From the NCBI GenBank assembly GCA_963742655.1, contig CAVUMM010000008.1, positions 311,707-375,706 of the forward strand: DNA of 64,000 nt. The letters run 5' to 3'. The notes beneath the pieces were generated by a model, which did not search any database, had not been told where the DNA came from, and saw only the letters and a list, made by a program, of their open reading frames with translations. Source of the stretch: an uncultured Candidatus Saccharibacteria bacterium (lineage in GTDB: Bacteria; Patescibacteriota; Saccharimonadia; Saccharimonadales; UBA4665). The translations under genes were made by a program, and so were the position numbers. Below are positions 2,300 through 27,969 of the stretch, in pieces. How positions within the stretch are numbered: the first letter of the stretch is position 1; each line of letters starts with the position of its first letter.

Positions 2300-4648
2300 T
2301 TGGATAGAATTGCTTTAATGGTTAAGCTTAGCATCCGTCAGAAAATTCTTGCTTTGGTATTGGCGGCCACGATTATACCATTCGCGCTTATCAATGTGTT
2401 TTGGGTAAACATCCAGCGACACACCCTTCTGGATAACGCCAAAGAAACGCAAATAGCTGCCACGAACAAAGATGCCGGAGCCACCAGCTTGTTTATCGAC
2501 GAAGAAGTGCAGCAGATGATTTTCCGGGCGCAGGACATGGCGGTGGACGCCGGTGAAAAAAGCAGTCACGATTTCGATCTTGATGTCCGGGCCTACATGC
2601 TCGAAGATAACAAGAACCTGGTAAGCGCCCAAAAGGTGTTCGTCAACGGGCAAGAACAGGTATCGCGGGACCAAAACGGCGAGCTGCCTTTGCAAAACGT
2701 CAGCGGCTCACCGGTTTTCCAGGCTCTTAAACGAGGAGCAAACCGCTATATCAGTTCGGCTAAACTCGATTCCAGCGGCGCGCCGCTGGTAACGCTTGGC
2801 GTAGCAATCCCGAAAAATATTGATCCGCCGGTTTTGGCCCAATTGGTTTACGATGACACGCGGCCGGCCAATTCTACGCTCGGCTTCAATGGCGCTCTGA
2901 TCACGCAATTGGATTTTCAAGTACTATGGACATCGATACTTTCACAGTCTGTTAACTCACCAGGCAGCGTCGCGTTCGTAGTGGACGGGAAGGGCGATGT
3001 CGTGGCTTATCCTAAGCAGTTAAGTTCCCGAGTCGCTGCCAATTTAAGCTCGACGCCGATAGTGGCTGATTATTTGCACCGTTTGAACTCTGCTGGCAGA
3101 GATGCGGATAATGCAGACCTGCGCGCCTCAATTCAGGCAAAATCTGAGAATGGTGTGAACGTACTGGCGACGTATCAAAATATCAAAGGAACCGACTGGG
3201 CGATAGTAGTGGAGGATCCCATCGCTAACGTATACAAGGGTATCAACCAAATAACCGAAATCGGGTTGATCATAGCGCTGCTAGCCTTCATCTTATTTGT
3301 TGTCATCAGTCTTTGGCTTAGCAAATATATTTCACGGCCAATCTTGCACATAGCCAATGTAGCCGGCCGCATCGGCCGGGGCGACTTCGACGCGCGCGTT
3401 GACGGCGGTCGCAGCGACGAGATCGGCACGCTCGGACAAAGCGTGAACGCCATGGGCCAAAATCTGAAAGTATCAGTGGGACAGATCGAGAACCAGCGGC
3501 GCCAGCTGGAAGCGATCCTGAATAACACCACGGACGCCATACTTTCGGTAGATGATCACGGAACTGTTTCGGTGGCCAACAACGTCGCTAATACATTCTT
3601 TGAATTTAACGATAAATCACTTTCCGGCCAGCACATCGGCGCCTTGATGCGATCGGTGCAATCCAATGCCGACCCGCTAAACTGGGACTTTTCAACTTTG
3701 AAACCCGGAGTACACGTGTTTACTGATCTTACTTACACCAGCCCGTCGCAAAAGACACGATATATAGATGTCGTGGTGTTTAAGATCGAAAGCTCCATAG
3801 CCGGCGCCGCGTCCAACCAGAGCATCGTGACGATCCATGATGAGACCAAGCGCCGGGAGTTGGACAATATGAAGGTTGATTTCGTTTCCATGGCAGCGCA
3901 CGAGTTGCGCACGCCCTTGTCCGCCGTTCAGGGTTATCTTGAGCTAGTATTAGATGGCGAACTTCAGTCTGCGCTTTCTGAAAAAGTGAATTATTACTTG
4001 AAGCATGCTCAGTCTAGTGCCGGCGAACTTGGGGCACTTATAAGCAACCTGTTGAATGTCACACGGCTGGAGCATGGCACGCTGCATATGCACATGGAAA
4101 AAGTCGATCTTGCGGCAAAAGCCGGAGAAACGGTCAAGAATTCGCAGTTTAACGCCGCAAACAAGAAGATCAACCTCAGTTACACTGGGCCCCAGAACGA
4201 GTGCTTTGTGGTTGCTGACGGGGCCACATTGCAGGAAGTACTGAACAATCTATTAGATAATGCCATTAAGTACACTCCCCAGGGCGGCAGCGTCAACCTC
4301 TCTTTCAACGAACAAGGTGGTAAAAATGTAGTCAAGGTCCGTGACACCGGTTGCGGAATCCCCGAGAGCGCGCTACCACATTTGTTTACGAAGTTTTACC
4401 GCGTACACAGCGGGCTCGAAACAGGCAGTGCCGGTACGGGCTTAGGCCTATATTTATCTAAGACTATCCTGGAAAGCTTCGACGGCACCATCACGGTGCA
4501 GTCGGTAGAGGGTATGGGATCGGAATTTACCGTCACGCTACCGTTATATAATGAAGCCAGGCTACAAGAATTAATAAGCTCTCAGGTCGATGATGGATTT
4601 AATAAAGGAGACAACCGTGGCTGGACTACAACGAATACTCCTCGTTGA
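2300..4648 (+). CDS. sensor histidine kinase (extracytoplasmic sensor, HAMP, PAS-like, HisKA, HATPase)
   Basis: 782-aa ORF (TTG 2300, in-frame ATG 2318). Two TM segments flank an extracytoplasmic region of about 280 aa. H-box SMAAHELRTPL, N-box LLDNAIKYT, G-boxes RDTGCGI and GTGLGL. Confidence 0.9.
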   Translation: MDRIALMVKLSIRQKILALVLAATIIPFALINVFWVNIQRHTLLDNAKETQIAATNKDAGATSLFIDEEVQQMIFRAQDMAVDAGEKSSHDFDLDVRAYMLEDNKNLVSAQKVFVNGQEQVSRDQNGELPLQNVSGSPVFQALKRGANRYISSAKLDSSGAPLVTLGVAIPKNIDPPVLAQLVYDDTRPANSTLGFNGALITQLDFQVLWTSILSQSVNSPGSVAFVVDGKGDVVAYPKQLSSRVAANLSSTPIVADYLHRLNSAGRDADNADLRASIQAKSENGVNVLATYQNIKGTDWAIVVEDPIANVYKGINQITEIGLIIALLAFILFVVISLWLSKYISRPILHIANVAGRIGRGDFDARVDGGRSDEIGTLGQSVNAMGQNLKVSVGQIENQRRQLEAILNNTTDAILSVDDHGTVSVANNVANTFFEFNDKSLSGQHIGALMRSVQSNADPLNWDFSTLKPGVHVFTDLTYTSPSQKTRYIDVVVFKIESSIAGAASNQSIVTIHDETKRRELDNMKVDFVSMAAHELRTPLSAVQGYLELVLDGELQSALSEKVNYYLKHAQSSAGELGALISNLLNVTRLEHGTLHMHMEKVDLAAKAGETVKNSQFNAANKKINLSYTGPQNECFVVADGATLQEVLNNLLDNAIKYTPQGGSVNLSFNEQGGKNVVKVRDTGCGIPESALPHLFTKFYRVHSGLETGSAGTGLGLYLSKTILESFDGTITVQSVEGMGSEFTVTLPLYNEARLQELISSQVDDGFNKGDNRGWTTTNTPR

Positions 4649-5060
4649 GGATAATGTAAGCTTGCAGGATATTTACACGCAGTATCTTAAGCACCGCGGA
4701 TACACGGTGGCCTCGGCTGTGGACGGCTACAAAGCCCTGGAAGCGGCCAAAGCATTTTCGCCGGAACTCGTTTTCCTGGATATCATGATGCCGGGTATGA
4801 ATGGCTTTGACGTGGCAAAAAAGTTGCGCAGCGATCCGCAATATAACTGCACCAGGGCCAGGATTGTACTGCTGTCCAACTTGGGGCGCGACAAAGTTCC
4901 GGCCGAGCTCAACCAAGTCGTAGACGGCTACGCGCTAAAAGCTGAAATACAGCTTTCTGACCTGATTAAAATCATCAACTCATTTACGCCGGCTTCACCA
5001 ACGGATTCATCGGCAAACCCGGCAAACGGAGGCGGAAGTCATAATGACCCTGCCGCTTAA
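4617..5060 (+). CDS. response regulator, receiver domain only
   Basis: ILLVEDN..., FLDIMMPGMNG, LLSNLG and K in GYALKAE fit a CheY-like receiver. GTG 4617 sits 6 nt after AGGAG (4606-4610); track ORF starts at ATG 4590. No DNA-binding domain, only a short low-complexity tail. Confidence 0.85.
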   Translation: MAGLQRILLVEDNVSLQDIYTQYLKHRGYTVASAVDGYKALEAAKAFSPELVFLDIMMPGMNGFDVAKKLRSDPQYNCTRARIVLLSNLGRDKVPAELNQVVDGYALKAEIQLSDLIKIINSFTPASPTDSSANPANGGGSHNDPAA

Positions 5061-8550: not shown

Positions 8551-9276
8551 TTAGCGAGTCACACTGATGGTGGCGCCATCTTCGGCACTCGGAGCTGCAA
8601 TCGTAAATCGTCCATTGCTAGCTGAAATCGTATAACCTGTGGCGTACGAGCCGGAGCATGTTCCGCTTCCGGTCTTAGGGTCTACCGGCATAGCTGCCAA
8701 GAACGTCGGAACCACGTCGGCACACAAGTCAACATCATTTACGCCCGTCCAACTTCCAATGGTGCAGGTACCGGGAGGGCCATCAGCGGCACCGCTCGCA
8801 TTCGTTACTGCAAGTGTAGTTGACGTAATTGCTTCGACCGGATAAGTTCCATTATCAACTGATGCGCCACCCGTACAACCCGAAACCGTAACATTACCGG
8901 TTGCTGTAAGAATGTTGTTCGTCGCATCCAAGTTAAACGTTACGACGTTGGTCGCGAACGTGGCGCCCCCTGTCGTATCTGTTTGATCTGCAGGTACGGT
9001 GACCGAGGCGAGCGGAGTCGGGGTACTCGTGAGGTTGGCTACAGAAGCCGGCTCATTGCCATTGTTCGCCGATTCGTATTCGTAAATTGCATTCAAGATT
9101 TCCGAAACGTTCGATGAACGCTGCGTATTTCGTGTATCCTGGAAGTGTTTGTTTGGATTGATCGCGATCAAGGTAATAGCCAGCAGGATTGCCAGAATAC
9201 CTATAACGACCAGGAGCTCAATCAGCGTGAAACCGTTTTGCTCCTTTCGCCCGATGAATTTAGTATGCAGCTTCAT
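8551..9276 (-). CDS. type IV pilin (paralogue 1)
   Basis: Prepilin leader MKLHTKFIGRKEQNG then FTLIELLVVIGILAILLAITLIAI (Gly-1, Phe+1, Glu+5); four Cys in the C-terminal half; conserved tail TIAAPSAEDGATISVTR. Confidence 0.85.
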   Translation of the reverse strand: MKLHTKFIGRKEQNGFTLIELLVVIGILAILLAITLIAINPNKHFQDTRNTQRSSNVSEILNAIYEYESANNGNEPASVANLTSTPTPLASVTVPADQTDTTGGATFATNVVTFNLDATNNILTATGNVTVSGCTGGASVDNGTYPVEAITSTTLAVTNASGAADGPPGTCTIGSWTGVNDVDLCADVVPTFLAAMPVDPKTGSGTCSGSYATGYTISASNGRFTIAAPSAEDGATISVTR

Positions 9277-9314
9277 TTTAAATCGTCATCCTTTCTGCTT
9301 AATATTTTTAACTT

Positions 9315-10004
9315 TTATCGAGTTACGCTAATAGTCGCACCGTCTTCGGCGCTTGGAGCGGTGATTGTGTATCGATTACTGCTTTGTGAGATCGTGTAAC
9401 CGCTGTTATATGTACCGCTGCAGGCTGTGCCGACCGCCGTAGTCGGGTCCACTGGGATACCTGCGATGTATGTCGGAACCAAGTCTGCACATGGGTTGAT
9501 CACTGCCGTGAAGCTGCCCAATACGCAGGTCGCGTCAGTTGATACGCCGCTGGCATCCGTCACCACTATAGTTGTGTCGTCGCCGCTTGTTATGGGGAAA
9601 GTGCCGTTGTTGCCCGCATTAGTACAACTGGTTACCGTTACATTGCCCGAAGTTATCGTGTTCCCGGACGGAACCGTAAAGGTGACAGCGCCAGTTGCGA
9701 ATGTGGCGTCTGTGGCATTTTCATCAGCCTGATTGGCGATCGGTTTGGCTGTACCGGTTACGTTTGTCAACGAAGCCGGTGAGTTACCGTTGTTTGCCGA
9801 TTCATATTCATAAATGGCATTCAATATCTCTGAGACATTCGATGAACGCTGCGTATTTCGCGTGTCCTGGAAGTGCTTATTAGGATTGATCGCGATCAAC
9901 GTAATTGCAAGCAGGATTGCTAAAATACCAATCACCACCAACAGTTCAATGAGCGTGAACCCACCCTGATGTTTAAGATTTGTTATTTTTGTTTTTACTT
10001 TCAT
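9315..10004 (-). CDS. type IV pilin (paralogue 2)
   Basis: Leader MKVKTKITNLKHQGG then FTLIELLVV. First ~75 aa and last ~20 aa nearly identical to paralogues 1 and 3; central part differs. Confidence 0.85.
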   Translation of the reverse strand: MKVKTKITNLKHQGGFTLIELLVVIGILAILLAITLIAINPNKHFQDTRNTQRSSNVSEILNAIYEYESANNGNSPASLTNVTGTAKPIANQADENATDATFATGAVTFTVPSGNTITSGNVTVTSCTNAGNNGTFPITSGDDTTIVVTDASGVSTDATCVLGSFTAVINPCADLVPTYIAGIPVDPTTAVGTACSGTYNSGYTISQSSNRYTITAPSAEDGATISVTR

Positions 10005-10033
10005 TTAAGCTTTACCTTTTTAGTTATGCTGTT

Positions 10034-10062
10034 ATGATGCGGCATCGGAGTGTAAAAGTCAA
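10034..10062 (-). promoter_or_regulatory. candidate sigma70-type promoter of pilin paralogue 2
   Basis: Minus strand reads TTGACT (10062-10057), 17-nt spacer, CATCAT (10039-10034). The same module with the same spacing is repeated upstream of paralogue 3. Confidence 0.4.
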
Positions 10063-10092
10063 CATTTTTAGTCACCCCGATCACCAGGTTAT

Positions 10093-10124
10093 GCACACCG
10101 CCGCGTATCTATAGGGCGGTGTGC
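10093..10124 (-). terminator. 10-bp GC-rich hairpin after pilin paralogue 3 (terminator-like, no clear U-tract)
   Basis: GCACACCGCC (10093-10102) pairs with GGCGGTGTGC (10115-10124), 9 nt downstream of the pilin-3 stop. Confidence 0.4.
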
Positions 10125-10133
10125 CCGTTAAAG

Positions 10134-10844
10134 CTAACGGGTAACGCTAATGGTGGCGCCGTCTTCCGCACTCGGTGCGGCAATAGTATATCTGCTGCCA
10201 GTCGCAGATTTAGCGATGGTGTAGCCGGAGTCATACGCCGTTGTGCCTCCACCACATGGGGTCGTGCCGCCGGTCACTGTTCCGGTAGATGGATCGATAG
10301 GCAGATCTGCAATGTACGTAGACACGAGGTCCGAGCACATGTTTACTTTGGTGTCAATTTGACAAGTGGTATCACCCGCAGCGCCGCTGGCGTTTGTCGC
10401 GGTTATTGAAACACCGGTTCCGGCGGTCACTGGGAATTCGCCATTATTAGCCGCGGTAGTGCAGCCGCTGACGAGTACATTGCCAGATGTGACGCTGTTA
10501 CCGCTCAAACCTGTAAACGTTACATCCGGGCTTGAGAATGTCGTGTTAGTCGGCGATTGTGTGGCCGCTTTGCCGAGCGGCAATGCGTTCGTGCCCAAAT
10601 ACGTTAATGAAGGCGGCAGGTTTCCGGTATTCGCGGATTCATATTCATAAATAGCGTTCAATACTTCGCCGACATTCGATGAACGTTGCGTATTTCGCGC
10701 GTCCTGGAAATGCTTGTTCGGGTTGATAGCGATCAACGTAATGGCCAGAAGAATCGCTAATACACCGATCACGATCAAGAGCTCGACAAGCGTGAAACCC
10801 GACTCACTCGATGTTAATTTTTGTAATTTTGTTGGTAGTTTCAT
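10134..10844 (-). CDS. type IV pilin (paralogue 3)
   Basis: Leader MKLPTKLQKLTSSESG then FTLVELLIVIGVLAILLAITLIAI; conserved tail TIAAPSAEDGATISVTR. Confidence 0.85.
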   Translation of the reverse strand: MKLPTKLQKLTSSESGFTLVELLIVIGVLAILLAITLIAINPNKHFQDARNTQRSSNVGEVLNAIYEYESANTGNLPPSLTYLGTNALPLGKAATQSPTNTTFSSPDVTFTGLSGNSVTSGNVLVSGCTTAANNGEFPVTAGTGVSITATNASGAAGDTTCQIDTKVNMCSDLVSTYIADLPIDPSTGTVTGGTTPCGGGTTAYDSGYTIAKSATGSRYTIAAPSAEDGATISVTR

Positions 10845-11479: not shown

Positions 11480-11860
11480 CTACGGTGTCTCCGCCCAGCT
11501 GTTGAGCGTTAAACTATTAGAAGCATACGTTGCGGTGGCCGTCACGGTGCGCCGGTAATTGCCGACCGACCCGACCGACGAAATGGTCAGCGAGCCGGAA
11601 CCGCTTACGGTAATTGTAGCAGAACCGCTGCCGATAGACATCGTTTCACCGGTATAGCTCGGATTCCTTTCAAGTTGAATCATGGCATTTTCCACCCCAT
11701 CCTGCGCATACTCTAGCGCTAAGCTGCCGGATGAATAGCTATTGTTGGCTCGGATATTGATAATAGTGACTGCGACCGCGGCCAGCGTAATCGTCATGGC
11801 GATAACCATATATATAAGAAGCGCGACGAGAGTCTGGCCTGATGTGTTTAGTTTTTTCAC
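11480..11860 (-). CDS. pseudopilin-like protein (non-canonical, no Glu+5)
   Basis: MKKLNTSG then QTLVALLIYMVIAMTITLAAVAV hydrophobic helix and a small beta-rich domain; overlaps the upstream gene by 4 nt. Confidence 0.55.
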   Translation of the reverse strand: MKKLNTSGQTLVALLIYMVIAMTITLAAVAVTIINIRANNSYSSGSLALEYAQDGVENAMIQLERNPSYTGETMSIGSGSATITVSGSGSLTISSVGSVGNYRRTVTATATYASNSLTLNSWAETP

Positions 11861-12378
11861 TTTAGTTCCACCGTGTTCGTGTATGTTTGCGCACTATTCA
11901 CGCCATGGCCGGGCGTCAAACCGGTAACAGTAAAGCTATAGGTGATCGTGGGTTTGCCGCTCACGTTGCCGAGTTTTTGGAAGTTGAGGGCCGAAACTTT
12001 GACGGTGTTGTCGTTGAGATTGTCGGTGCCGGTACCGTCGGTAAATTGCAGGTTGTTGCCGCTGAGGGCGTAAGTATACGTCGTGCTGCTGATGGTCATC
12101 ACCAGCGTCGCTCCGCTGCCTCCGAGTGACGCGGGGGTCGTGACTGCCGTTGCCCGTGCGATATCGTAATTCAACCGCGCCATAATAAAGCGGCCATTGC
12201 CGGTTACGGCCGAATAATTCCTTGACAAATTCTGCTGGTCAACGGAGGCTGTAAAAATAGTCGTGAGCACCACGAGCATAATCGAAAGCAAACCCATGAC
12301 AACCAGGAGCTCTATCAACGTTGCGCCACGCTGTCCGTACGTACGTAATCTGGAAGGTAAGAGTAATATTTTTATCAT
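11857..12378 (-). CDS. minor (pseudo)pilin
   Basis: ATG at 12378 (ATGA overlap with the upstream stop at 12375). Leader ...TYGQRG then ATLIELLVVMGLLSIML. The track ORF extension to 12549 lies inside the upstream gene. Confidence 0.7.
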   Translation of the reverse strand: MIKILLLPSRLRTYGQRGATLIELLVVMGLLSIMLVVLTTIFTASVDQQNLSRNYSAVTGNGRFIMARLNYDIARATAVTTPASLGGSGATLVMTISSTTYTYALSGNNLQFTDGTGTDNLNDNTVKVSALNFQKLGNVSGKPTITYSFTVTGLTPGHGVNSAQTYTNTVELK

Positions 12379-14279
12379 GGCGAGTAATTTAGCGTTGTGT
12401 CGAGTATGAAGGGTTTTGAGGTGGCAAAGTTTGTCGTATTCAGTGTTGCTTTGTAGCGGAAATAGCGATAGTCTGCGTCTACCAACGGAATGGCGCCGGG
12501 GCTGGAATAGCGGGAAAACGGCGTACCGTCCGGCCCGATGTAATTCCATGTGGCGTTGTCGTTGTTGGCGGCGATTTGATAGGTAATGGTGGTATTCACC
12601 GGCATCGTGTTGGTGAAAGTAAAGTAATTGAAACCGGCCGCCGCACCGGCATTGAACGTCTGCGACGTGAATGTCCCGTTCCCACTCGTTCCGCCGGCAA
12701 CGGCTGATCCCTTCATGATGGTAAGTTCGGCAGTGTTTGACGTTGACGCTATATATGCAGTGTCATTAGCAACAAAAATGTTATCTGCCGTCGACTGAGT
12801 ATTTGAACCTTCCAGGGTCGGTGTAGATATTGTTGAAAGGTCTAGCACTGTAAATTGTCTCGCCGCCCGCGCGGTTGCCAGAAAAGCTTCGTACCCGTTA
12901 ACACTTACGCCATTCACGGCTCCTCCCACTTCGTAGGAGCCGACTTGACTTATGCTTGACAGGTTTGTAACATTTAAAATGAAAAATTCCGGTCCGCCGG
13001 TATTGTTTGCTTCGCCTAAATATACGTAATATCCATCGTAATAAATGTTATTGGCTGCAACGCCACCTGTGGTGGCAAAGGACCCGACAACTGTCGGGGT
13101 ACTTTTGTTGCTTATATCCACAACGGTGAGTTCGGCAGTAGTGTCTCCGGTAGCAAGGTAAGCGTAATTCCCGGAGACTTTGATTGAATTTACGGCACCG
13201 GCCATATTCAGCGATCCGGCAAGCGTTGGCGTTGAAGGATTACTTACATCCACGACATAAAATTCATCATTTCCATTGTTCGTGTTCAGCGCTTTTCCAA
13301 CGTAGGCGTAACCACCTGTTACATATACGCTATTAGCATTCGCAGCCCCGCCCAGGTTGAGTGTGCCAGCCTGCACGGGTGCGGCCGGGTTACTGACATT
13401 TACAACGGTTAATTCAGCAGTGTTGCTCGTGGATGCGATGTATGCAAAATTGCCAACCACGTATACGCTATTCAGTTGAACCGCAGGATTAAAAGTGCCA
13501 AGCAACGCGGGTGCGGCCGGGTTGGCGACATTGATGATGCTCATACTTGCGCCGTTTACGACATAGGCGCGATTTGTCGAAGTGTCGGTATAGACGTCGT
13601 TAGCATTGGTGTTGCCGGCGATATTAAGCGTACCGACCTGTATGGGGCTGACCCAGCTGACCCCATGGCCGGCGGCAGTTATTTGTACTTGCCCTCCACC
13701 CGTGGCCGAAGACGTGGTGTTATTAAGTGTTCCAGCACTGAAGTTAGCCTGCGTCGTTTGCAGCCAAGCGGCGTTGCTTTGCCAGCGCGAAAAGTATGCC
13801 TGGCTGGAAATTGAAGAACCAATCGGTTTTGTCCATGATACAGTCGCAGTAACCAACTTAGTATTAGGATCAATTGTGCCGCCGCTGCTTACGATTGTTC
13901 CGCTGCTGTCGCGTTGCACATCACTGATGACGATTTGCTGTGTAAAATTTCCGGACGTAGCAGAGCCGCTGGCAAGCGTCCAGGCATTAGCGCTTGTAAT
14001 CGGGTGATACGTCCCGTTCGTTGCAATGTTACTCCAGCCACTTTCGCGTACACTGCGAGTTTCTTCGGTAAGACTGCGCAGAAATCCCGAAGCGAGCGCT
14101 TGTTGCTGGGCCGCCGGTTTCGCAGCATTCGCGCTGATCAGGGCAGTCAATATAGCCGGCAGCATGATGCTGGTTATGCCGATAGCGACGAGGACTTCCA
14201 CCAACGAGGCGCCGCGCTGGTTTCGTGAATGCGGTTTTTGCCTGGTTAATTTTGCCTGTATATATCGGATGATTTTCAT
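12375..14279 (-). CDS. pseudopilin-like N-terminus fused to an LVIVD-repeat beta-propeller (candidate pilus-associated adhesin)
   Basis: 634 aa. Leader ...SRNQRG then ASLVEVLVAIGITSIML. About seven ~40-aa repeats of the type VNS[IV]xVxGNYAY[IL]Axxxxxx[EL]TVVD[VI]SNPxxPxxxG, the LVIVD repeat pattern. Distinct C-terminal ~110-aa domain. Confidence 0.8.
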   Translation of the reverse strand: MKIIRYIQAKLTRQKPHSRNQRGASLVEVLVAIGITSIMLPAILTALISANAAKPAAQQQALASGFLRSLTEETRSVRESGWSNIATNGTYHPITSANAWTLASGSATSGNFTQQIVISDVQRDSSGTIVSSGGTIDPNTKLVTATVSWTKPIGSSISSQAYFSRWQSNAAWLQTTQANFSAGTLNNTTSSATGGGQVQITAAGHGVSWVSPIQVGTLNIAGNTNANDVYTDTSTNRAYVVNGASMSIINVANPAAPALLGTFNPAVQLNSVYVVGNFAYIASTSNTAELTVVNVSNPAAPVQAGTLNLGGAANANSVYVTGGYAYVGKALNTNNGNDEFYVVDVSNPSTPTLAGSLNMAGAVNSIKVSGNYAYLATGDTTAELTVVDISNKSTPTVVGSFATTGGVAANNIYYDGYYVYLGEANNTGGPEFFILNVTNLSSISQVGSYEVGGAVNGVSVNGYEAFLATARAARQFTVLDLSTISTPTLEGSNTQSTADNIFVANDTAYIASTSNTAELTIMKGSAVAGGTSGNGTFTSQTFNAGAAAGFNYFTFTNTMPVNTTITYQIAANNDNATWNYIGPDGTPFSRYSSPGAIPLVDADYRYFRYKATLNTTNFATSKPFILDTTLNYSP

Positions 14280-14281: not shown

Positions 14282-14773
14282 CTAATTTATCGTGAGCGCT
14301 CCATAGCGCCCGACGCTAATAGTTTTTGATGTGCCGTTATCGGAAATAGTAATCGTATTGCTCCCGCCCGAAAATCCTGAAACCGCACCGTCACCCTTTT
14401 GGAAAAGCAAATTACTGCCCGGGAACGTCGTTGCAATGACAGCCGGGCTTATCGAAACGGTAAAATTATTCGTATCGGAACCGTTATAACTACTGCCGGC
14501 GTACAGGACGTATGAGCCGGATTGAACGTGTACGCCTTGCGGCTGTTGGCTGGTCGTACTGCCAATTCCGCCGGACATGGCGAGTAATTGTTGCCCCTTG
14601 ATGTCGCTCGTCAAAGTATCGGTTAATGATGATACCGACGCTGTTTGATGGACTTTACCTAAATTGATCGTAGCCAGCGCAAACAAAATAGCCGATACTC
14701 CAAGCACGACCATAATCTCAACAAGCGTAAAACCTGCCTGATTCGTTCGACGTTCGGCGAGTATTTGAAACAT
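14282..14773 (-). CDS. minor (pseudo)pilin
   Basis: Leader MFQILAERRTNQAG then FTLVEIMVVLGVSAILFALA. Confidence 0.75.
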   Translation of the reverse strand: MFQILAERRTNQAGFTLVEIMVVLGVSAILFALATINLGKVHQTASVSSLTDTLTSDIKGQQLLAMSGGIGSTTSQQPQGVHVQSGSYVLYAGSSYNGSDTNNFTVSISPAVIATTFPGSNLLFQKGDGAVSGFSGGSNTITISDNGTSKTISVGRYGALTIN

Positions 14774-14778: not shown

Positions 14779-15867
14779 TTACTGAGGAGGGCCGCCCGTC
14801 TGGGCTGTCGGCGAGTTTATTTGGCTGATCATTCCGTATACCGGCGCGATGACTGAAATCATGAGTGTGCCGACCATGATGCCAACGAACACGATCATGA
14901 CCGGCTCCACTATGCTGCCGATTACTTTCAGTGTAGACGCTACCTGTTCGTCAAAATAGTCGGCCAGGTTCTGCAACGCTTTTTCGAGCGTGCCCGTTTC
15001 CTCGGCAGTTTTGATGGAGCGCTCCATCATCGCCGGCACGACGCCTGCGGTCGAGCCCAGACTGGCGCCAAGCGGTTTACCGTTGGCGACGTCTATCCGC
15101 ATCTGGTGAACGATTGCCGCGATATCCTTTTTTTGGACCACTGGTTCGGAAAATTTTAACGCGTCGAGTATCGGCACCCCGGCACGCATCAGCAGTGCGA
15201 AACTGCGCATAAAACGCGCAAAATCAATGTTACGCCCGAGTCTATGTAGCATCGGCAACGACATGACCAAACGGAATATAACTTGCTTTTGAGTTTTGAA
15301 AAACACCACAAGCAGCACTACCGCCAAAATTAACCCGGCAACGACTTCGTACCAATGCGCCATAAAAAATGTCGACGCGGATAGCATTACCCTGGTTATT
15401 AAAGGCATGTTGATATCGAGTGAACGGAATACTTTCGATATGCGCGGCATCACAAAGGTAAGCACCAAAACGATTATCGCCAAAAATATTATCAAGACGA
15501 AGAACGGATATATCATCGTATTTCGTAGTTGCTCGCTGAAATTCGCATCTTTTTTGCCGGTGTCGACGATGTCCTGAAGTGTATTTTCCAGTGTGCCGCC
15601 GGCTTCTGCTGCCCGGATAAGGTTGATGGTAATCTCGTCGAACGTGCGCGGAAAGCGGCCAAGGATTTTAGCGAGTGACTCGCCGTTATACAGGCCTTTC
15701 CTGATGCTTTCCAGCATCTTTTTTACGTTACCTTTGGCATCTTTTTCTAATGATACGACCGCATCCAGGATCGGAATGCCGGATTTTAGCATCGTGGTCA
15801 TATCCGACAGTAAGCTTAACCTGTCTTTGCTTTTAAGTTTTATTTTCGAATTAGCCCGATTTTTCAT
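14779..15867 (-). CDS. pilC: type IV pilus platform protein PilC (GspF family)
   Basis: 362 aa; duplicated GspF-type cytoplasmic domains (LSLLSDMTTMLKSGIPILDAV and FARFMRSFALLMRAGVPILDAL) with three TM segments. Confidence 0.9.
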   Translation of the reverse strand: MKNRANSKIKLKSKDRLSLLSDMTTMLKSGIPILDAVVSLEKDAKGNVKKMLESIRKGLYNGESLAKILGRFPRTFDEITINLIRAAEAGGTLENTLQDIVDTGKKDANFSEQLRNTMIYPFFVLIIFLAIIVLVLTFVMPRISKVFRSLDINMPLITRVMLSASTFFMAHWYEVVAGLILAVVLLVVFFKTQKQVIFRLVMSLPMLHRLGRNIDFARFMRSFALLMRAGVPILDALKFSEPVVQKKDIAAIVHQMRIDVANGKPLGASLGSTAGVVPAMMERSIKTAEETGTLEKALQNLADYFDEQVASTLKVIGSIVEPVMIVFVGIMVGTLMISVIAPVYGMISQINSPTAQTGGPPQ

Positions 15868-15872: not shown

Positions 15873-17564
15873 CTACAATTTCGTCACGCGCATTATTTCG
15901 GACAACGTGGTTTCGCCGGCAATTACTTTGTCGAGCCCATCATCGAGCATCGTTACCATGCCGTCGTGGATAGCCTGTTCAGCTAGTTTGTCGGTATCGA
16001 CTTTTTCACTTATCAGCTGGGCAAGTTTCGGCGTGATTTGCAGGACTTCGAATACGCCTAAACGTCCCTGGTATCCGGTGTTGTGGCAGGCGGTGCAGCC
16101 GTTGCCCTTGTAAACGCGGATGCCCGCCTTGTTGCCGAAGTGCTTCACGTACATGGCTTTGGTGATATTAGATAGCAAAACAGACTGGCTGGCATCACCG
16201 GCCCAGCCTTTTGCCGTGTGGGTCAGTTTGATGCTGACCTTACAGCGCTCGCAGATCTGGCGTACCAGGCGCTGTCCGATAACGATGTTCGTGGTCGACG
16301 CGACAAGAAAAGGCTCGATCCCCATATCAATCAGCCGGGGCAGGGTCGTTACGGCATCGTTGGTGTGCATGGTGCTGAGCACCATATGGCCGGTCATGGC
16401 GGCGTTGACGGCGATTGCCGCCGTTTCGTCATCGCGGATCTCGCCTACGAACAGCACGTCCGGATCCTGGCGCATAAGTGATCGCAGACCCGCTTCGAAC
16501 GTCAGGTTAGCTTTGGCATTTACCTGGATTTGGTTGATGCCTTCAAGTTCGTACTCGATCGGGTCTTCTATCGTTGCTATGTTGCGGTTGCGTGCGTTCA
16601 GGATTTTAAGTATCGCGTAAATTGATGTAGTTTTGCCTGAGCCGGTCGGGCCGGTTGACAGCACCATGCCGTATGGCCGGGTAAAGCCTTTACGAACCAG
16701 CTCCATATTGTCGGCGGTCATGCCAAGTTCGGTCAGATTGAATTGGTGGTTTTGTCGCGCCAGTACGCGCATGACAACTTTTTCGCCGGTCACCTGCGGG
16801 ACGATGCTGATACGCACTGCCAGGTCTTGATCGCGGACCCGCACCCGCATACGTCCGTCCTGCGGCCCCATATGCTCATCGGTACGAAGCCGCGCCATAA
16901 CTTTGAAACGGGCGACCATTTGATCGTGGTACGTTTTCGCAAAATAAGCTTCGTCGTGCAGTACACCATCGATACGGAATCGTATGACAGTGGCACCGCG
17001 CAGCGGCTCGACATGTATATCCGAAGCTTGGGCGTCAAACGCATAATCAAAAATACAATCCACGACTTTAGCGACCGGTGCCGCGCCGGTATTTTCACTT
17101 GGCAGCATCTCGTCTAACACATGCTGCAAGTTGCGCTTGTACAGGTGCAGGGCGGAATCAATGCCCGCGTCACTGGCAAACGAAACTTTGCTGGTTTTGG
17201 CGCCGGCCTTTTTGGCTAGCATATCGAACAGGTCGGTAGCGGCAGGTTGGGCCGTGGCAATATGCAGCGTGTCGACATCCAGCTGAAAAGCGACGGTTTG
17301 GAATCGTTTTGCAACCTCAGCAGGCAGCATTTGTAAAAGTTCGTCCGGAATATTTATCTTATTGAGTTCGACATAGGGCAATTTATAATGGTACGCAGAA
17401 ACTTCGCCAAGTTGTTCTTCGTTTAGTATTTCGTGGTCAAGCAATGCCTGCTGCAGGCTGGTTTTATCCTTCTGGGCGTAGCCTTTTGCAGAATCCAGTT
17501 TTTGTTCCGGCACGAGCTTAACGTGCTTGAGCACGTTCAGCAGCTCGTCGTCAGTCAGATTCAT
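15873..17564 (-). CDS. pilB: type IV pilus assembly ATPase PilB (GspE family)
   Basis: 563 aa; Walker A GPTGSGKTT, MRQDPDVLFVGEIRD, tetracysteine CERC...CTAC, N-terminal GspE-N domain. Confidence 0.95.
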   Translation of the reverse strand: MNLTDDELLNVLKHVKLVPEQKLDSAKGYAQKDKTSLQQALLDHEILNEEQLGEVSAYHYKLPYVELNKINIPDELLQMLPAEVAKRFQTVAFQLDVDTLHIATAQPAATDLFDMLAKKAGAKTSKVSFASDAGIDSALHLYKRNLQHVLDEMLPSENTGAAPVAKVVDCIFDYAFDAQASDIHVEPLRGATVIRFRIDGVLHDEAYFAKTYHDQMVARFKVMARLRTDEHMGPQDGRMRVRVRDQDLAVRISIVPQVTGEKVVMRVLARQNHQFNLTELGMTADNMELVRKGFTRPYGMVLSTGPTGSGKTTSIYAILKILNARNRNIATIEDPIEYELEGINQIQVNAKANLTFEAGLRSLMRQDPDVLFVGEIRDDETAAIAVNAAMTGHMVLSTMHTNDAVTTLPRLIDMGIEPFLVASTTNIVIGQRLVRQICERCKVSIKLTHTAKGWAGDASQSVLLSNITKAMYVKHFGNKAGIRVYKGNGCTACHNTGYQGRLGVFEVLQITPKLAQLISEKVDTDKLAEQAIHDGMVTMLDDGLDKVIAGETTLSEIMRVTKL

Positions 17565-17791: not shown

Positions 17792-18193
17792 ATGGACGAG
17801 ACTAAATATACTACTACAAACCTGAATAAGCGGATATTGCTGGCGGATGCTGACCAGTTCATCGCTGTAGCCTACAAAGACGGCGTTGAGCAGGCTGGTT
17901 ACGAGGCTATTGTCGCCAGCGATGGTCGCAAAGCATTGGACATTCTTAAATCCGAACACATGGATGCCGTAATTCTCGAACTGATCCTGCCGAAAGTGAA
18001 CGGCTTTGAAATCCTGCAGTTCATGCAAAAAAATAAAAAGCTCAAAAAAATTCCGGTAATCGTGCTTACAAGCCTCAGCCAGGCCAGTGACGAAGCCGAA
18101 GCCCGCAGCTACGGCGCGATCGATTTCATGGTCAAGTCAGAAACTTCAGTTGTGGATTTGATCGATCGGCTCAACGGACTTTTTTCAGCGTGA
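17792..18193 (+). CDS. stand-alone CheY-like response regulator
   Basis: 133 aa; RILLADAD, DAVILELILPKVNGFE, VIVLTS, K in DFMVKS; no output domain; transcribed divergently from pilB. Confidence 0.85.
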   Translation: MDETKYTTTNLNKRILLADADQFIAVAYKDGVEQAGYEAIVASDGRKALDILKSEHMDAVILELILPKVNGFEILQFMQKNKKLKKIPVIVLTSLSQASDEAEARSYGAIDFMVKSETSVVDLIDRLNGLFSA

Positions 18194-19456
18194 ACGGTGC
18201 GTCAATTTTCTAGATTTGGCCGAACGCCGTTTCGGCACGAATCGAAGATAGCTTTCGCGCTCGCCAAGCCAGAAACTCAAGACCATTAATACGACGGTGG
18301 CATAGGCCGGCCAGGCGAGCCAGAGCCACGAACCGCGCTGAGCAAAAAAGCTCCAAATGCCGTTCGGCTGGGCTGAACCGTTTGATGAGCCGGTTGATGC
18401 GCCGACAATTCCGTAAATACTGGTTGCGCCCGGTGATTTAATCAGGGCCGCCAGCTGAATAATTCTCACTGAACCCTCGGCGTCGACCGATCTAATAGTA
18501 ATCGGATAGTAACCGTTTCTGTTGTATACGTGCTGGATCCAGAATACCGGATCGACCTTAAAGATCAGCTTGGAATGCTGACCGTCTCCCCAGCTGATGT
18601 AGACCGTGTACGGCGGTACGCCGCCTTCCAGGTCGAGCGACCACTTAAACTGGCTGCCGGTCAAAAACGTCTGATAGTGAAAGTCTGCGGTAAGTAGCAG
18701 CGGCGGCTCGGTAGCACCGGAGCCGGATATAGTATAGCTGGTGCCGTTTGGCGATTGCACGGTGACGGGCGAGCCGGTTGTGCCGGTGACGGTTTTGCCC
18801 GGCTGCGATGGCTGTGTCGGCGGCGGCGAAGGCGGCGTGTACTTTATCGTAATAACCGGCGTGGTGGGGCCTGGGTCGTCGGTTTCGTTATAATCTTGAG
18901 CCCGCAATACGTTGGTACCGTCGTAACAGTTCATCTGGATGCTAAATTGGCCGCTATTGCACCAGGCGACGCCGCTGAATGTATTGTTATCGAATAACTT
19001 CACGTATGAATCAGCTGGACAGGTACCGTGTACGGTTTGGGCTGCCACAGTTACTGTTGCACCGTCGTCCGGTGCGGTTATGACGGCACCATCTACCAGC
19101 GGCGCGGCTGGCACCTTAGCTTTTACGGTGTACGATCCGGCCACTACCTTGAACGTCCAGCCGATAATTAACACGCCTGCACACAATACGAGCAGAACGC
19201 TAGCAGGGTGGAGGAGAATGCGTTTGTGTAATGGCCGAGCGGCACGGATGCGTTTTCTGGCGGTGAGTTTCGGCGTCTTACGACTGGGGGCCAGACGCTG
19301 CCCGCGAACTGCGGTCCGGTTTGTTTGCCGCCGGCGTGTCGTTTTGGACTGCTTCATGAAGCGATTTTTCTTTTTATCGTCAAGCCGCATCATAACACGG
19401 TTGTAACTGCGTTGTAAATTGATCACGCTCACCGCGTTCTGCAATATGTGTGGCAT
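18185..19456 (-). CDS. membrane protein with PKD-like domain and Arg/Lys-rich cytoplasmic N-terminus
   Basis: TM helices near both ends, Pro-rich linker PPSPPPTQPSQP, PKD-like WGDGQH...YNRNGYYPITIRSVDAEGS. True start uncertain (in-frame ATGs at 19393 and 19357). Confidence 0.6.
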   Translation of the reverse strand: MPHILQNAVSVINLQRSYNRVMMRLDDKKKNRFMKQSKTTRRRQTNRTAVRGQRLAPSRKTPKLTARKRIRAARPLHKRILLHPASVLLVLCAGVLIIGWTFKVVAGSYTVKAKVPAAPLVDGAVITAPDDGATVTVAAQTVHGTCPADSYVKLFDNNTFSGVAWCNSGQFSIQMNCYDGTNVLRAQDYNETDDPGPTTPVITIKYTPPSPPPTQPSQPGKTVTGTTGSPVTVQSPNGTSYTISGSGATEPPLLLTADFHYQTFLTGSQFKWSLDLEGGVPPYTVYISWGDGQHSKLIFKVDPVFWIQHVYNRNGYYPITIRSVDAEGSVRIIQLAALIKSPGATSIYGIVGASTGSSNGSAQPNGIWSFFAQRGSWLWLAWPAYATVVLMVLSFWLGERESYLRFVPKRRSAKSRKLTHRSR

Positions 19457-19466
19457 AATTTAAATC

Positions 19467-20039
19467 ATGACGCGTAATCGGAGGATGGTGCTGGGGAGCG
19501 TAGTCTTAGCGCTCATCGCTATCGTTGGCGGCGTAATGTTTGTTATGTCGCGATTGAACGCGCCACACCAAGGCGTGGTCCATGTTGGCGCCGTCATTCA
19601 ACCGAGCGCAACTTTTGATATGACGCCGAAGCCGGCGCAAGGCACGTATGTGACGTTTGCATATCCGGCGGGCTTGACGGTCGTTCCGAACAATCCGATC
19701 GTCAAACCGGTACTCGAACAGTTTAATTTCATACATCGCGATATTGAAACGTGGAATTTGGCGATCGCAGTACTTACTAACCCAGGTGACATCAGCACCA
19801 ACAATGCCTACCAATACCGCAAAACAAAACCATCTGAGTATAAAGAATCACAACTGACCGTCAACGGCCGGCAAGTGGTTATTATGACCGACACAAGCGT
19901 GGGTGGCTTTAGCGAAGTTGCTTTTTTGCAACACGGGCCCTACGGCGCGACGATTTCGCTTTATGGCGACGATCAGGCGGGTACGCAAGCGTTAGCGAAT
20001 ACTTTCCATATGATACTGAGCACTTGGAGCTGGAAATAG
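19467..20039 (+). CDS. hypothetical membrane-anchored protein
   Basis: 190-aa ORF with a single N-terminal TM helix; no family recognised. Confidence 0.5.
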   Translation: MTRNRRMVLGSVVLALIAIVGGVMFVMSRLNAPHQGVVHVGAVIQPSATFDMTPKPAQGTYVTFAYPAGLTVVPNNPIVKPVLEQFNFIHRDIETWNLAIAVLTNPGDISTNNAYQYRKTKPSEYKESQLTVNGRQVVIMTDTSVGGFSEVAFLQHGPYGATISLYGDDQAGTQALANTFHMILSTWSWK

Positions 20040-20045
20040 CTAGAG

Positions 20046-20074
20046 TTGCGAAATGCCGGCGGTCAAACTAGAAT
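20046..20074 (+). promoter_or_regulatory. candidate promoter TTGCGA-N17-TAGAAT, near-leaderless for the following gene
   Basis: TTGCGA 20046-20051, TAGAAT 20069-20074. ATG at 20084 is only 9 nt past the -10 and has no Shine-Dalgarno. Confidence 0.45.
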
Positions 20075-20083
20075 AAACTTGTC

Positions 20084-21109
20084 ATGGTTAAAGTCGGGCC
20101 GATTGTAGTGAGTCTGGGGACGCTTCTGTTCGCTTCGTTTTCTTCCAGCAGCACGTATCAATTAAATAGTTATAGTGTTGGGCCGGGCGGGACGAATAGT
20201 GCCGGATCGAGCACCTATAAATTGCAGGGGAGTACTGGCGAACAAGCTAACGGTTCAGCTGCCGGTTCGACTGATACGGCCGGCAATGGATCAGTTCAAA
20301 CAGAGCAGCTCAATGTGCCGCCAGCACCAACCCTCAGTAATGGCTCTGGTGCTTACTACAATAAATTGCAGTTGACCATCAATGTTGGCAACGATACTGC
20401 CAGCGATATCACCTTTGCGATTGCGGTGTCGACCGACAACTTTGTGACCACGAATTATGTTCAAGCGGACGGGACGCTCAATATTTCTCCAGTGTACCAG
20501 ACGTATGCGAGCTGGGGTGGCAGCAGCGGTTCCTTTATCACGGGACTCGCAGCAAGTACGACGTATAAAGCCAAAGTTGCGGCCAAGCAAGGCTTGTTTA
20601 CGAATACGGAATTTGGTGCCGTCGCGACTCAGAGCACCGCAGCCCCATCGATAACTTTTTCTGTATCGCCAAATTCGTTGACATTGAGTACCTTGTTGCC
20701 TGGAAGTGTTATTACGAGCTCAAACCTGGCGTTATCGCTCGATACGAACGGCGCGTCGGGAGGTGGTGTGTATGTTTCGGGCCTCAATACAGGATTAACT
20801 AGTCAGCGTGTTAGTTATACAATCCCCGCATTTTCTGGAAATCTTGCTTTACAGCCCCAAGGGTTCGGCGTGCAAGCTACCAGCCCCAGTCAATCCTCAG
20901 GCGGCCCTTTGAGTAGAGTGAGTCCGTTTGACGGTTCAGCTAACACCGTCGGCGCCGAATCAACAACGCCACAATCAATGCTTTCGTCACCCGCTGCAAT
21001 TGCGGGCGGCAGTGCCAATGCCAACGCCCAGGCCAAGGCTTCTTCAAACACGCCGGCCAGTCCTGATTACTCAGAGACATTGACATTCACTGCCGCAGCA
21101 AATTTCTGA
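20084..21109 (+). CDS. secreted surface protein P1: FN3-like domain plus WxL-like C-terminal domain
   Basis: Signal peptide; FN3-like segment PPAPT...GLAASTTYKAKVAAKQG. C-terminal ~170 aa similar to the next gene, ending DYSETLTFTAAANF. Confidence 0.7.
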   Translation: MVKVGPIVVSLGTLLFASFSSSSTYQLNSYSVGPGGTNSAGSSTYKLQGSTGEQANGSAAGSTDTAGNGSVQTEQLNVPPAPTLSNGSGAYYNKLQLTINVGNDTASDITFAIAVSTDNFVTTNYVQADGTLNISPVYQTYASWGGSSGSFITGLAASTTYKAKVAAKQGLFTNTEFGAVATQSTAAPSITFSVSPNSLTLSTLLPGSVITSSNLALSLDTNGASGGGVYVSGLNTGLTSQRVSYTIPAFSGNLALQPQGFGVQATSPSQSSGGPLSRVSPFDGSANTVGAESTTPQSMLSSPAAIAGGSANANAQAKASSNTPASPDYSETLTFTAAANF

Positions 21110-21232
21110 AAAATGTAAGATTTTTAACACACAAATCATTGCTTTGCTTATGTTTTTATAATAAGCTTATGTTATCCGAAAAGTAACAGCAGAAAATAAC
21201 AGTCATTAACTTTAAGCAGGAAAGTTCTGCAT

Positions 21233-22282
21233 ATGAAGCGTATAAAAGTAACAATTTCTAGAAAACTACAACTCGCACTCGTCTTGTTAGGCGTGGTGAC
21301 GGTCAATGTGGCATTTTTGCCGGTAGCATCGGCTGCAACATTTATGACGCATGCCACGGTCATGGAAACAAATATGAATACTTCCGGACAATCCGCACTG
21401 ATTGTAGCCTTTACGGCTGGTGCGGCTGACAGCGGCAACTTGGTTATCAACATGGGCACCGCGACTTCAGCCGTGTTGGCGGCGCCTGCAATATCGACGA
21501 CTTACAATGGGGTTGATTGTAAAACAATTACCGGCGCGGCTAATGACCTGCCAGGCACACTGTCTTCCTCGGGTAACTCAAATCCTACCATTACTGTTAC
21601 CGGCGTTACAGCATTAACAGCAGGACAATCGTACTGTGTTGTTGTGGGCTCTTTTGCGGCACAAACTGCAGTTACAAACGTGGCATCTTCGAATTCGTAC
21701 GCTGTCACCCTGACAGATGGAACAGACTCAGCTACGGTTGCGATTGACTTGATTGCAAACGATCAAGTTGTCGTGAACGCGACAGTGGCCCCGGCGTTTA
21801 CGTTGGCGCTCAGCGGAAACACTGATAACTTTACTGGCAACTTGTCATCAGGTTCTATTGCCACGACTACCGGTGTAACAGCGACGGTCAACACAAACGC
21901 TAAGACGGGCTGGTTCTTGTGGGGTTCAGATTCTAATACAGGCATTAAGTCGGCAACTCAGAACTACACAGTGCCTTCGCGAACACCAGGCACCAATGCT
22001 ACATTGACTAATGGAACAGAAGGATACCTTACGGGTCTGCCAGCTGGTGGCATTACGCAGGGGAGTGGCGCCGGTACGACGACTGCCACGACCGCCTATG
22101 CTTCATCCGGCTCTGGTAATGGAAGTGGATTGGATGGCACTCCCCGTCAGCTAGCCAGTAGCGATGGTACTGCCAATGGCGCGATTGTCACCGTAAAGGA
22201 ATTCGGCACGATTGCCGGCACTACCCCGGCTGCATCTGATTACAGTGATACAGTTACACTTGTCGGCGCGGGCAGTTTCTAG
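21233..22282 (+). CDS. secreted surface protein P2 with WxL-like C-terminal domain
   Basis: Signal peptide ending VASAATF; AGGAAAG RBS. C-terminal domain contains TGWFLWGS and ends DYSDTVTLVGAGSF. Confidence 0.7.
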   Translation: MKRIKVTISRKLQLALVLLGVVTVNVAFLPVASAATFMTHATVMETNMNTSGQSALIVAFTAGAADSGNLVINMGTATSAVLAAPAISTTYNGVDCKTITGAANDLPGTLSSSGNSNPTITVTGVTALTAGQSYCVVVGSFAAQTAVTNVASSNSYAVTLTDGTDSATVAIDLIANDQVVVNATVAPAFTLALSGNTDNFTGNLSSGSIATTTGVTATVNTNAKTGWFLWGSDSNTGIKSATQNYTVPSRTPGTNATLTNGTEGYLTGLPAGGITQGSGAGTTTATTAYASSGSGNGSGLDGTPRQLASSDGTANGAIVTVKEFGTIAGTTPAASDYSDTVTLVGAGSF

Positions 22283-22295
22283 GATAATTACATAC

Positions 22296-24349: not shown

Positions 24350-24393
24350 CACCAGCCCACGCCGCATTGCCCAAATAGTATAATATAAGGTAC

Positions 24394-25086: not shown

Positions 25087-25130
25087 ATTCGCTACATTAC
25101 TGGTGTGAAAAGGGCGGCGGCCGAGTGAGC

Positions 25131-25144
25131 GTGATGGCAATCAC
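25131..25144. promoter_or_regulatory. palindrome GTGAT-N4-ATCAC, candidate Crp/Fnr-type operator
   Basis: 5-bp inverted arms with a 4-nt spacer (FNR-like geometry), centred about 32 bp upstream of a TAAAAT -10 box (25169-25174). That puts it near -42 of the predicted start site; AGGAG RBS at 25194-25198. Confidence 0.35.
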
Positions 25145-25205
25145 CAAGCTATCAACGCGATAACAGGCTAAAATATAGACACAAGCGATTTGTAGGAGCG
25201 CAGCA

Positions 25206-27119: not shown

Positions 27120-27132
27120 GCATAAACTTTGC

Positions 27133-27870: not shown

Positions 27871-27909
27871 GTAGTAAAATCTACTTCAGTTTAATCAAGA
27901 GAAGTTATA

Positions 27910-27935
27910 TTGACATGAGCATTATCGTGTATAAT
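27910..27935 (+). promoter_or_regulatory. possible promoter of the 960-aa surface protein gene
   Basis: TTGACA 27910-27915 and TGTATAAT (extended -10) ending at 27935, but the spacer is only 14 nt, so this is uncertain. Confidence 0.3.
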
Positions 27936-27969
27936 TTGATAGGAAGCATAAGCGGGAGCACATGTCTTA

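Follow-up and report, generated by a model that had tools for sequence, protein, structure and literature searches.

A putative modular minor pilin with an LVIVD beta-propeller nested in its head in a Saccharibacteria type IV pilus operon

How ultrasmall candidate phyla radiation (CPR, or Patescibacteria) bacteria recognize and attach to their hosts is largely unexplained, and type IV pili (T4P) are the main candidates. Here we describe a gene in a pilus operon of an uncultured Candidatus Saccharibacteria bacterium, found in a 64,000-nucleotide (nt) stretch of DNA that we refer to as the window (GenBank assembly GCA_963742655.1, contig CAVUMM010000008.1, positions 311,707 to 375,706). The gene encodes a protein of 634 amino acids (aa) that joins a prepilin-like N terminus to a beta-propeller made of LVIVD repeats, and a first-pass annotation made from the sequence alone had marked it as a candidate pilus tip adhesin.

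The 634-aa gene and its pilin module

In the operon, four translationally coupled minor-pilin genes directly follow pilB-pilC and precede the genes of three major pilins; number two of the four is the 634-aa gene (Table 1). The stop codon of minor pilin 1 falls 2 nt before its ATG, and its own stop codon overlaps the start of minor pilin 3 in an ATGA. Open reading frames (ORFs) and Pfam matches bear out the three neighbouring pseudopilins of the first-pass annotation and place pilB and pilC beside them. The protein is laid out as a pilin module followed by a beta-sandwich, and an LVIVD propeller is nested in the latter.

The N terminus of the ORF translation reads MKIIRYIQAKLTRQKPHSRNQRG↓ASLVEVLVAIGITSIML, where the arrow marks the junction between leader and mature protein; the start of the helix is ASLVEVLVAIGITSIMLPAIL, and the full N terminus reads MKIIRYIQAKLTRQKPHSRNQRG↓ASLVEVLVAIGITSIMLPAIL. 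A short basic leader ends in …SRNQRG↓A, with Gly at position -1, and Glu28 at position +5 (ASLVE28) is followed by approximately 20 hydrophobic residues. Such an arrangement is characteristic of class III (prepilin) signal peptides. Among 51 aligned full-length homologues, G23 and E28 are each conserved in at least 90%, unlike the leader sequence itself, which is not conserved; together with an N_methyl match above the Pfam cut-off, this upholds the prepilin-like start (…NQRG, Glu at +5) noted at first sight.

Next to the leader lies a pilin module of about 143 aa, in agreement with the minor-pilin-sized region of some 140 aa that had been recognized earlier. An AlphaFold2 (AF2) model of the 634-aa protein, built on the 51 homologues and with a mean predicted local distance difference test (pLDDT) score of 88.2, resolves this module into a 55-residue helix (aa 26-80) and an antiparallel sheet (aa 89-164), with pLDDT values of 80-96. 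Seven residues in the sheet region are invariant across the 51 homologues (W82, G89, W100, R123, G134, D137, and W149), and the pilin module is the best conserved part of the protein, whereas the propeller is the most variable (mean majority fraction of 0.66-0.67 versus 0.51). The predicted pilin fold of this module rests on motif, topology, and synteny.

The cassette of four genes appears to follow the H-I-J-K logic of the core minor pilins, whose final member (GspK) has no Glu at +5, and this would put the 634-aa gene at the I/PilV position. Such a placement agrees with a weak match to the NCBIfam PilV model (TIGR02523; aa 21-110, E = 0.0016, 18.9 bits, far under the cut-off of 52.2) and with the label "PilV" that JGI gives to several homologues; the NCBIfam scan gave no match of the 634-aa protein to GspI (TIGR01707). 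Like the GspH-I-J-K and FimU-PilV-PilW-PilX sets, the cassette consists of four consecutive coupled pilin-like genes, the last without Glu5 and the second weakly PilV-like; it differs in that the matches in the window are far below the family cut-offs, and in that the fourth protein, as read from its gene, has only 126 aa, compared to the much larger GspK and PilX. Inferred from its position and its missing Glu5, a K-like role of this 126-aa protein is plausible. The order of response regulator, PilB, PilC, H-like pilin, 634-aa gene, J-like pilin, pilin without Glu5, 184-aa protein (p184), and major pilins is collinear in ten related loci (the Saccharibacteria loci L001-L006, and L028-L031), and more distant CPR loci have a similar, recognizable order of pilus genes; the locus scan used 10 close sequences, and the set of loci is consequently biased toward close relatives.

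Table 1. Parts of the 634-aa gene and genes of the surrounding pilus operon (positions are those of the window; arrows mark the leader junction)
Feature	Positions	Strand	Evidence or remark
Whole gene, putative modular minor pilin, 634 aa	12375-14279	-	ORF (stop codon 12375-12377); Pfam matches; AF2 model
Leader peptide, aa 1-23, basic, last residue Gly23 (-1)	14211-14279	-	Sequence; predicted prepilin-peptidase cleavage after G23
Alpha-1 helix, aa 24-80, Glu28 at +5	14040-14210	-	Pfam N_methyl; AF2 helix 26-80
Pilin-module beta-sheet, aa 81-166	13782-14039	-	AF2 strands 89-164, pLDDT 82-96; invariant columns
First beta-sandwich strands, aa 167-205, upstream of propeller insertion	13665-13781	-	AF2 full-length model; alignment to 293-aa relatives
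Seven-bladed LVIVD beta-propeller, aa 206-527	12699-13664	-	Pfam, repeat register, AF2, Foldseek
Rest of beta-sandwich head, aa 528-634	12378-12698	-	AF2 strands 534-633; alignment to 293-aa relatives
Stand-alone CheY-like receiver protein	17792-18193	+	Pfam Response_reg 2.8e-18; divergent from pilB
PilB assembly ATPase	15873-17564	-	Pfam T2SSE 2.5e-124
PilC platform protein	14779-15867	-	Pfam T2SSF 1e-45
Minor pilin 1, 163 aa, G↓FTLVE, GspH/FimT/ComGD-like	14282-14773	-	Pfam N_methyl 6e-8; weak NCBIfam ComGD, GspH
Minor pilin 3, 173 aa, start MIKILLL…, G↓ATLIE, J/PilW position	11857-12378	-	N_methyl match
Pilin-like protein 4, 126 aa, SG↓QTLVA, Ala for Glu at +5, K/PilX position	11480-11860	-	Sequence
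Conserved 184-aa protein (p184), no membrane segment	10924-11478	-	Between minor and major pilin genes
Three tandem major-pilin paralogues, 241/229/236 aa, G↓FTLIE	8551-10844	-	N_methyl, TIGR02532

The propeller, the head that holds it, and their history

The Pfam LVIVD model (PF08309) matches the 634-aa protein with an E value of 1e-33 (114.9 bits against a cut-off of 20.2), and Beta_propel matches with 5e-7. Repeat units start at aa 227, 268, 314, 362, 408, 454, and ~498, a register that confirms the approximately seven LVIVD repeats assigned at first sight to nt ~12720-13607 (aa 225-520). In the AF2 model these repeats form seven blades of four strands each (28 strands, aa 226-527), with a closure strand at aa 206-218 and pLDDT mostly >90; the search for LVIVD repeats and the structure prediction of the full protein, two checks that the first-pass annotation had named, both support the propeller, and the architecture described at first sight is correct and well beyond chance. 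Foldseek comparison with the PDB recovered seven-bladed propellers, among them TLE1, Sec12, beta-TrCP, and BamB (TM-score normalized to the target of ~0.55-0.75), of which the first three were closest (root mean square deviation ~3.5 Å over ~340 columns). Y280 is the sole propeller residue that is invariant in the 51 homologues, the near-invariant ones being Gly, Ala, Tyr, and Glu of the repeat core, and no conserved His/Asp/Cys or metal-site-like cluster was found in the propeller across this set, a pattern better suited to a scaffold for binding than to an enzyme.

On either side of the propeller lie strands of a second domain. Upstream, AF2 places short strands at aa 170-200, and the segment aa 167-205 has pLDDT values of 80-90 in the full-length model versus <50 when it is modelled in isolation; aa 167-222 as a whole is confidently modelled in the full-length context only, consistent with the propeller being nested. 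Downstream, aa 528-634 (~107 aa) carries the motifs GPDG and RYFRYKA and a terminal NYSP, with G582 and Y632 invariant and P583, D584, and G585 conserved in at least 90% of the 51 homologues.

A search with aa 1-175 alone recovered proteins of ~293 aa whose pilin module is 51-63% identical and which have no LVIVD repeats. Their first ~200 residues align to aa 20-203 of the 634-aa protein and their last ~100 to aa 534-634 (39-53% identity), joining aa ~203 directly to aa ~534. They occupy the same operon position as the 634-aa gene, and the PilB encoded at these loci is 69-70% identical to that of the window, as close as at many propeller-bearing loci. Other relatives complete a series: ~160-aa proteins consist of the pilin module only and end at the equivalent of aa ~166; ~293-aa proteins add the sandwich, ~620-aa proteins one propeller, and ~940-aa proteins two tandem propellers. 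Three proteins of ~840 aa (P0032, P0034, and P0042) have an insertion of ~210 aa between pilin module and propeller. Because the propeller-less relatives keep aa 167-205 contiguous with the C-terminal domain, the alignments indicate a minor pilin of two parts, pilin module and beta-sandwich head, into which the propeller has been inserted. The first-pass annotation had assigned the last ~110 aa to a separate C-terminal domain; a beta domain of ~107 aa is present in the AF2 model, but the propeller-less relatives make it the second half of the sandwich that holds the propeller.

We found 603 homologues of the 634-aa protein, with numerous full-length ones of ~600-660 aa at 33-64% identity; named sources are Saccharimonadales, Curtiss-, Levy-, Gottesman-, and Nomurabacteria, and Parcubacteria. 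A profile search of 1.84 billion representative sequences was swamped by giant multi-LVIVD proteins and gave no clean family count, and inspection of its top 150 entries by eye recognized ~55 single-propeller and ~25 double-propeller entries of the pilin type. The giant proteins themselves span 3000-6900 aa (P0121-P0264) and contain up to 18 LVIVD-propeller stretches, and 15,957 proteins lie at E ≤ 1e-30. Five loci that carry LVIVD pilins in CPR-style operons of the order pilB-pilC-minor pilin-major pilin (L008, L009, L015, L020, and L021, the LVIVD pilin of L020 being a 1277-aa version) come from metagenome-assembled genomes labelled Pseudomonadales, Bdellovibrionales, or Gammaproteobacteria; these taxonomic labels may be wrong, or the LVIVD-pilin family may reach beyond CPR. 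The pilus operon of L028, which resembles those of Saccharibacteria and whose counterpart of the 634-aa gene has no propeller, sits on a contig of 1,901,429 bp (ERZ25039522 contig_23123), flanked by an insertion sequence (rve) transposase and a sortase; at 1.9 Mb this contig is large for CPR and reflects either an unusually large genome or a chimeric assembly.

Comparison of close relatives shows that identity is distributed unevenly along the protein. The operon most similar to that of the window is L004, where identity is 82% for PilB, 76% for the J-like pilin, and 78% for the fourth pilin. Its counterpart of the 634-aa protein (P0030), as well as P0041, is 70-90% identical over aa 21-170 and 20-45% identical from aa ~180 on. 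The reverse pattern holds for P0005 and P0006, with 43-63% identity over aa 21-130, which is most of the pilin module, and values mainly of 55-77% across propeller and sandwich. An identity breakpoint at the boundary of pilin module and head indicates that the head was exchanged or has diverged much faster, and suggests that head and pilin module have different histories. Mosaics of this kind are typical of receptor-binding modules, and the head appears to have been exchanged between lineages, which would change binding specificity.

Relation to known systems, proposed role, and alternatives

Pilins with an added bulky domain are already known. The modular pilins PilB (with a von Willebrand factor A module) and PilC (with a lectin module) of Streptococcus sanguinis act as adhesins (Raynaud et al. 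2021, PMC8179133), and Dataset S1 of that study lists IPR012902-IPR013211 architectures in several copy numbers, CPR proteins included. IPR013211 denotes the LVIVD repeat (PMC10210494), and the study mentions 12 copies of this "motif of unknown function" in a Ca. Falkowbacteria protein of 860 aa (PMC8179133). With N_methyl and LVIVD in one polypeptide, the 634-aa protein falls under the definition of a modular pilin given by these authors. The first-pass annotation was right that propeller and pilin-like helix are covalently joined, but the novelty that it implied for this fusion was overstated, since N_methyl-LVIVD modular pilins had been listed (PMC8179133) and a propeller-bearing pilin had been found in the Saccharibacterium TM7x (PMC11623550). 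Shared with the modular pilins are an N-terminal N_methyl pilin module, a bulky domain that is not specific to T4P, predicted tip display and adhesion, and occurrence in an organism that is not known to have a secretin-gated outer membrane, for which S. sanguinis offers a monoderm precedent; the window protein differs in that its propeller is nested in a beta-sandwich, whereas their extra domain is end-attached on a short loop. LVIVD pilins have thus been catalogued (Raynaud et al. 2021) yet never characterized, and their place in the operon, the insertion series, and the exchange of heads had not been described. New in our analysis are the fixed I-position in a CPR cassette, the nested-insertion series with 0, 1, or 2 propellers, and the apparent exchange of heads between lineages.

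A functional precedent comes from TM7x (Nanosynbacter lyticus), in which the minor pilin PilX2 (TM7x_02980) of T4P-2 has a seven-bladed RCC1-type propeller; its deletion approximately halves host binding, and the authors propose that it is a tip adhesin (PMC11623550, PMC12206443). Both are Saccharibacteria minor pilins with a seven-bladed beta-propeller. PilX2, however, has a propeller of the RCC1 type, whereas that of the window protein is of the LVIVD type with no RCC1 Pfam match; PilX2 was reported without a predicted PilD signal, whereas the window protein has Gly-1 and Glu+5; and PilX2 adjoins the major pilin, in the fourth (X/K) position by locus-tag order (PMC12206443 supplement), whereas the window gene is second (V/I). 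Compared by description and locus tags, the window pilin looks analogous rather than orthologous to PilX2.

Tip adhesins of the PilY1/PilC type, as in Pseudomonas aeruginosa, Neisseria, and Myxococcus xanthus, are separate non-pilin proteins that dock on minor pilins. PilY1 resembles the window system in having a seven-bladed propeller that acts with four core minor pilins at the tip, and in having variable parts that set what is bound; it differs in being a non-pilin with a propeller of another family (PF05567/IPR008707), while the window propeller is part of the pilin itself. We rejected membership of the 634-aa protein in the PilY1/PilC family, given that there was no PF05567 match at E ≤ 0.1, no PilY1 chain among the top 50 Foldseek matches, and a prepilin N terminus of its own. 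As for the LVIVD repeat (PF08309), the only description is a computational one from 2004, which presented it as a repeat of surface proteins and predicted a beta-propeller (Adindla et al. 2004, PMC2447325). The window propeller belongs to the same repeat family, and the AF2 model now supports the predicted fold; LVIVD surface proteins are mostly large non-pilins with many propellers, in contrast to the single propeller grafted into a pilin here.

We consider it probable that the 634-aa protein serves a Saccharibacteria T4P as a modular minor pilin and exposes, at the tip of the pilus, a binding head that can be exchanged. The protein would be cleaved after Gly23 by a prepilin peptidase encoded elsewhere, and its pilin module would join the three other minor pilins, as an H-I-J-K-like set whose fourth member has no Glu5, in a priming complex on PilC. 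PilB would then add major pilins beneath, so that the minor-pilin complex ends up at the pilus tip and the propeller and sandwich are displayed distally, where they may bind a ligand on the surface of a partner or host cell; the protein would in effect be a cis-fused analogue of PilY1. We infer these steps of assembly, extrusion, and display from established biology of T4P and type II secretion systems. CPR cells are not known to have a secretin-gated outer membrane, and for this reason the ~50-kDa head should face no channel-size limit. Of the original suggestion of a pilus tip adhesin, the architecture (signal peptide, pilin-like module, seven-bladed propeller, and cassette) is supported, and adhesion at the tip would be a reasonable extension of it.

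Several observations weigh against this proposal. The Pfam N_methyl match (PF07963, IPR012902; aa 19-40) is marginal, at 22.1 bits against a cut-off of 21.2, and no ORF of the window contains a PilD-like GxGDxK motif. When the N-terminal module alone was compared to the PDB with Foldseek, no solved pilin matched significantly (best E = 0.12), and when PDB sequences were searched with profiles of the full, N-terminal, and C-terminal alignments, nothing matched beyond Geobacter pilins, weakly and over their hydrophobic N-terminal helix (E ~0.02-0.05). The sandwich is not assigned to a family: Pfam returned only sub-threshold F5/8 type C (discoidin, PF00754) and LtfC-like matches for the C-terminal domain and the 293-aa relatives. 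Of 20 homologues, 7 had an F5/8 type C match (best E = 0.0058) but the 634-aa protein itself had none, and one 293-aa relative scored 16.9 bits where the cut-off is 28.2. Finally, the I-position subunit is not top-most in the known GspIJK complex, so a location at the tip would depend on how the head projects.

Among the alternatives, the one that survives best, although we regard it as unlikely, is that the protein belongs to a short pseudopilus or to a filament of the competence type. Processing and assembly with the other minor pilins would take place as in the preferred reading, but the head would serve DNA capture or passage of cargo through the envelope near the cell surface, not attachment to a partner. 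The window does encode PilB and PilC but no PilT, PilM/N/O, or PilD, minor pilin 1 has weak matches to ComGD and GspH, and modular minor pilins such as ComZ bind DNA (PMC8179133). Against this, three major-pilin paralogues of ~230 aa in the operon suggest a real filament, head exchange and a propeller that is the most variable part of the protein fit a variable external ligand better than DNA, and the TM7x pilus with the propeller-bearing pilin made no contribution to competence (PMC11623550).

Still less probable is that the N terminus is an uncleaved signal anchor and the protein an ordinary membrane-tethered LVIVD surface protein that happens to sit in a pilus operon. LVIVD propellers abound in surface proteins other than pilins, the 3000-6900-aa giants included, and the residue at +1 is Ala where Phe is usual; the marginal N_methyl score and the lack of a pilin fold in the structure search point the same way, and SignalP is reported to have predicted no PilD signals for the large TM7x pilins (PMC11623550). 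An anchor of this sort, however, would not account for Gly-1 and Glu+5 being so widely conserved next to a leader that is not, for the conservation of the module after the helix (seven invariant residues from W82 to W149) and its existence by itself as ~160-aa proteins, or for the fixed, translationally coupled place of the gene in the minor-pilin cassette. An enzymatic propeller, such as a hydrolase or lyase that acts on the host envelope or the cell's own wall after delivery by the pilus or from an anchor in the membrane, is comparably improbable. The Foldseek matches do include a seven-bladed phosphotriesterase (5hrm, E = 3e-10) and modular pilins with peptidase modules have been listed (Raynaud et al., PMC8179133), but the best fold matches are non-enzymatic WD40-type scaffolds, no Pfam enzyme family was matched, and no catalytic-type residue (no invariant His, Asp, or Cys and no metal-site-like cluster) is conserved in the propeller.

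Beyond the preferred reading of a tip-displayed, exchangeable head on a minor pilin, a bolder version is possible but doubtful, namely that the sandwich and the LVIVD propeller within it form a portable cassette by which CPR T4P recognize hosts and which is exchanged horizontally, where cis fusion to the PilV/I-position pilin replaces a docking adhesin of the PilY1 type and the head is gained, lost, duplicated, or swapped at a fixed breakpoint at aa ~165-205, changing the host cell or surface that is bound. Were this true, the host range of uncultured Patescibacteria could be predicted from the sequence of the head. The LVIVD-pilin family offers a concrete, widespread, and probably tip-displayed head domain on which host recognition can be tested, and it is well suited to experiments through its natural variants with 0, 1, or 2 propellers at one operon position, the apparent head swaps among close relatives, and domain boundaries that are sufficiently clear to guide recombinant expression. 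The current picture of T4P is unchanged by it; modular and propeller-bearing pilins are already known, and the protein will not surprise a pilus specialist.

Neighbouring genes and other features of the window

The remaining genes of the operon add several details. The 173-aa gene of minor pilin 3 is also called on another contig. Pilin-like protein 4, which has no Pfam match, shows a pattern at its leader junction, G↓QT(L/I)(V/I)A, that recurs in L001, L004, L005, L028, and L030. The 184-aa protein has no Pfam or NCBIfam match and is kept between the genes of the fourth minor pilin and the major pilins in L001-L006 and L030. The three major-pilin paralogues have near-identical N-terminal stretches of ~60 aa and an identical C-terminal "APSAEDGATISVTR", and they differ in the middle; related loci have 1-5 major-pilin copies, which may reflect variation of the pilus surface. 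A CheY-like gene beside pilB also occurs in L002, L004-L006, L019-L021, L028, and L029 and may regulate the pilus.

Beyond the CheY-like gene, a 423-aa membrane protein with weak Ig/PKD-like matches (18185-19456, minus strand) is followed by a run of large proteins of 190-960 aa, mostly without a Pfam match (19467-30852, plus strand), the first few of which are syntenic in L004; this group of genes at 18185-30852 may be another surface structure beside the pilus operon. At the other end of the window (2300-5060, plus strand), the gene for a 782-aa dCache-HAMP-PAS histidine kinase overlaps the start of a 156-aa ORF that is response-regulator-like by sequence, and this pair is apparently unrelated to the pilus locus.

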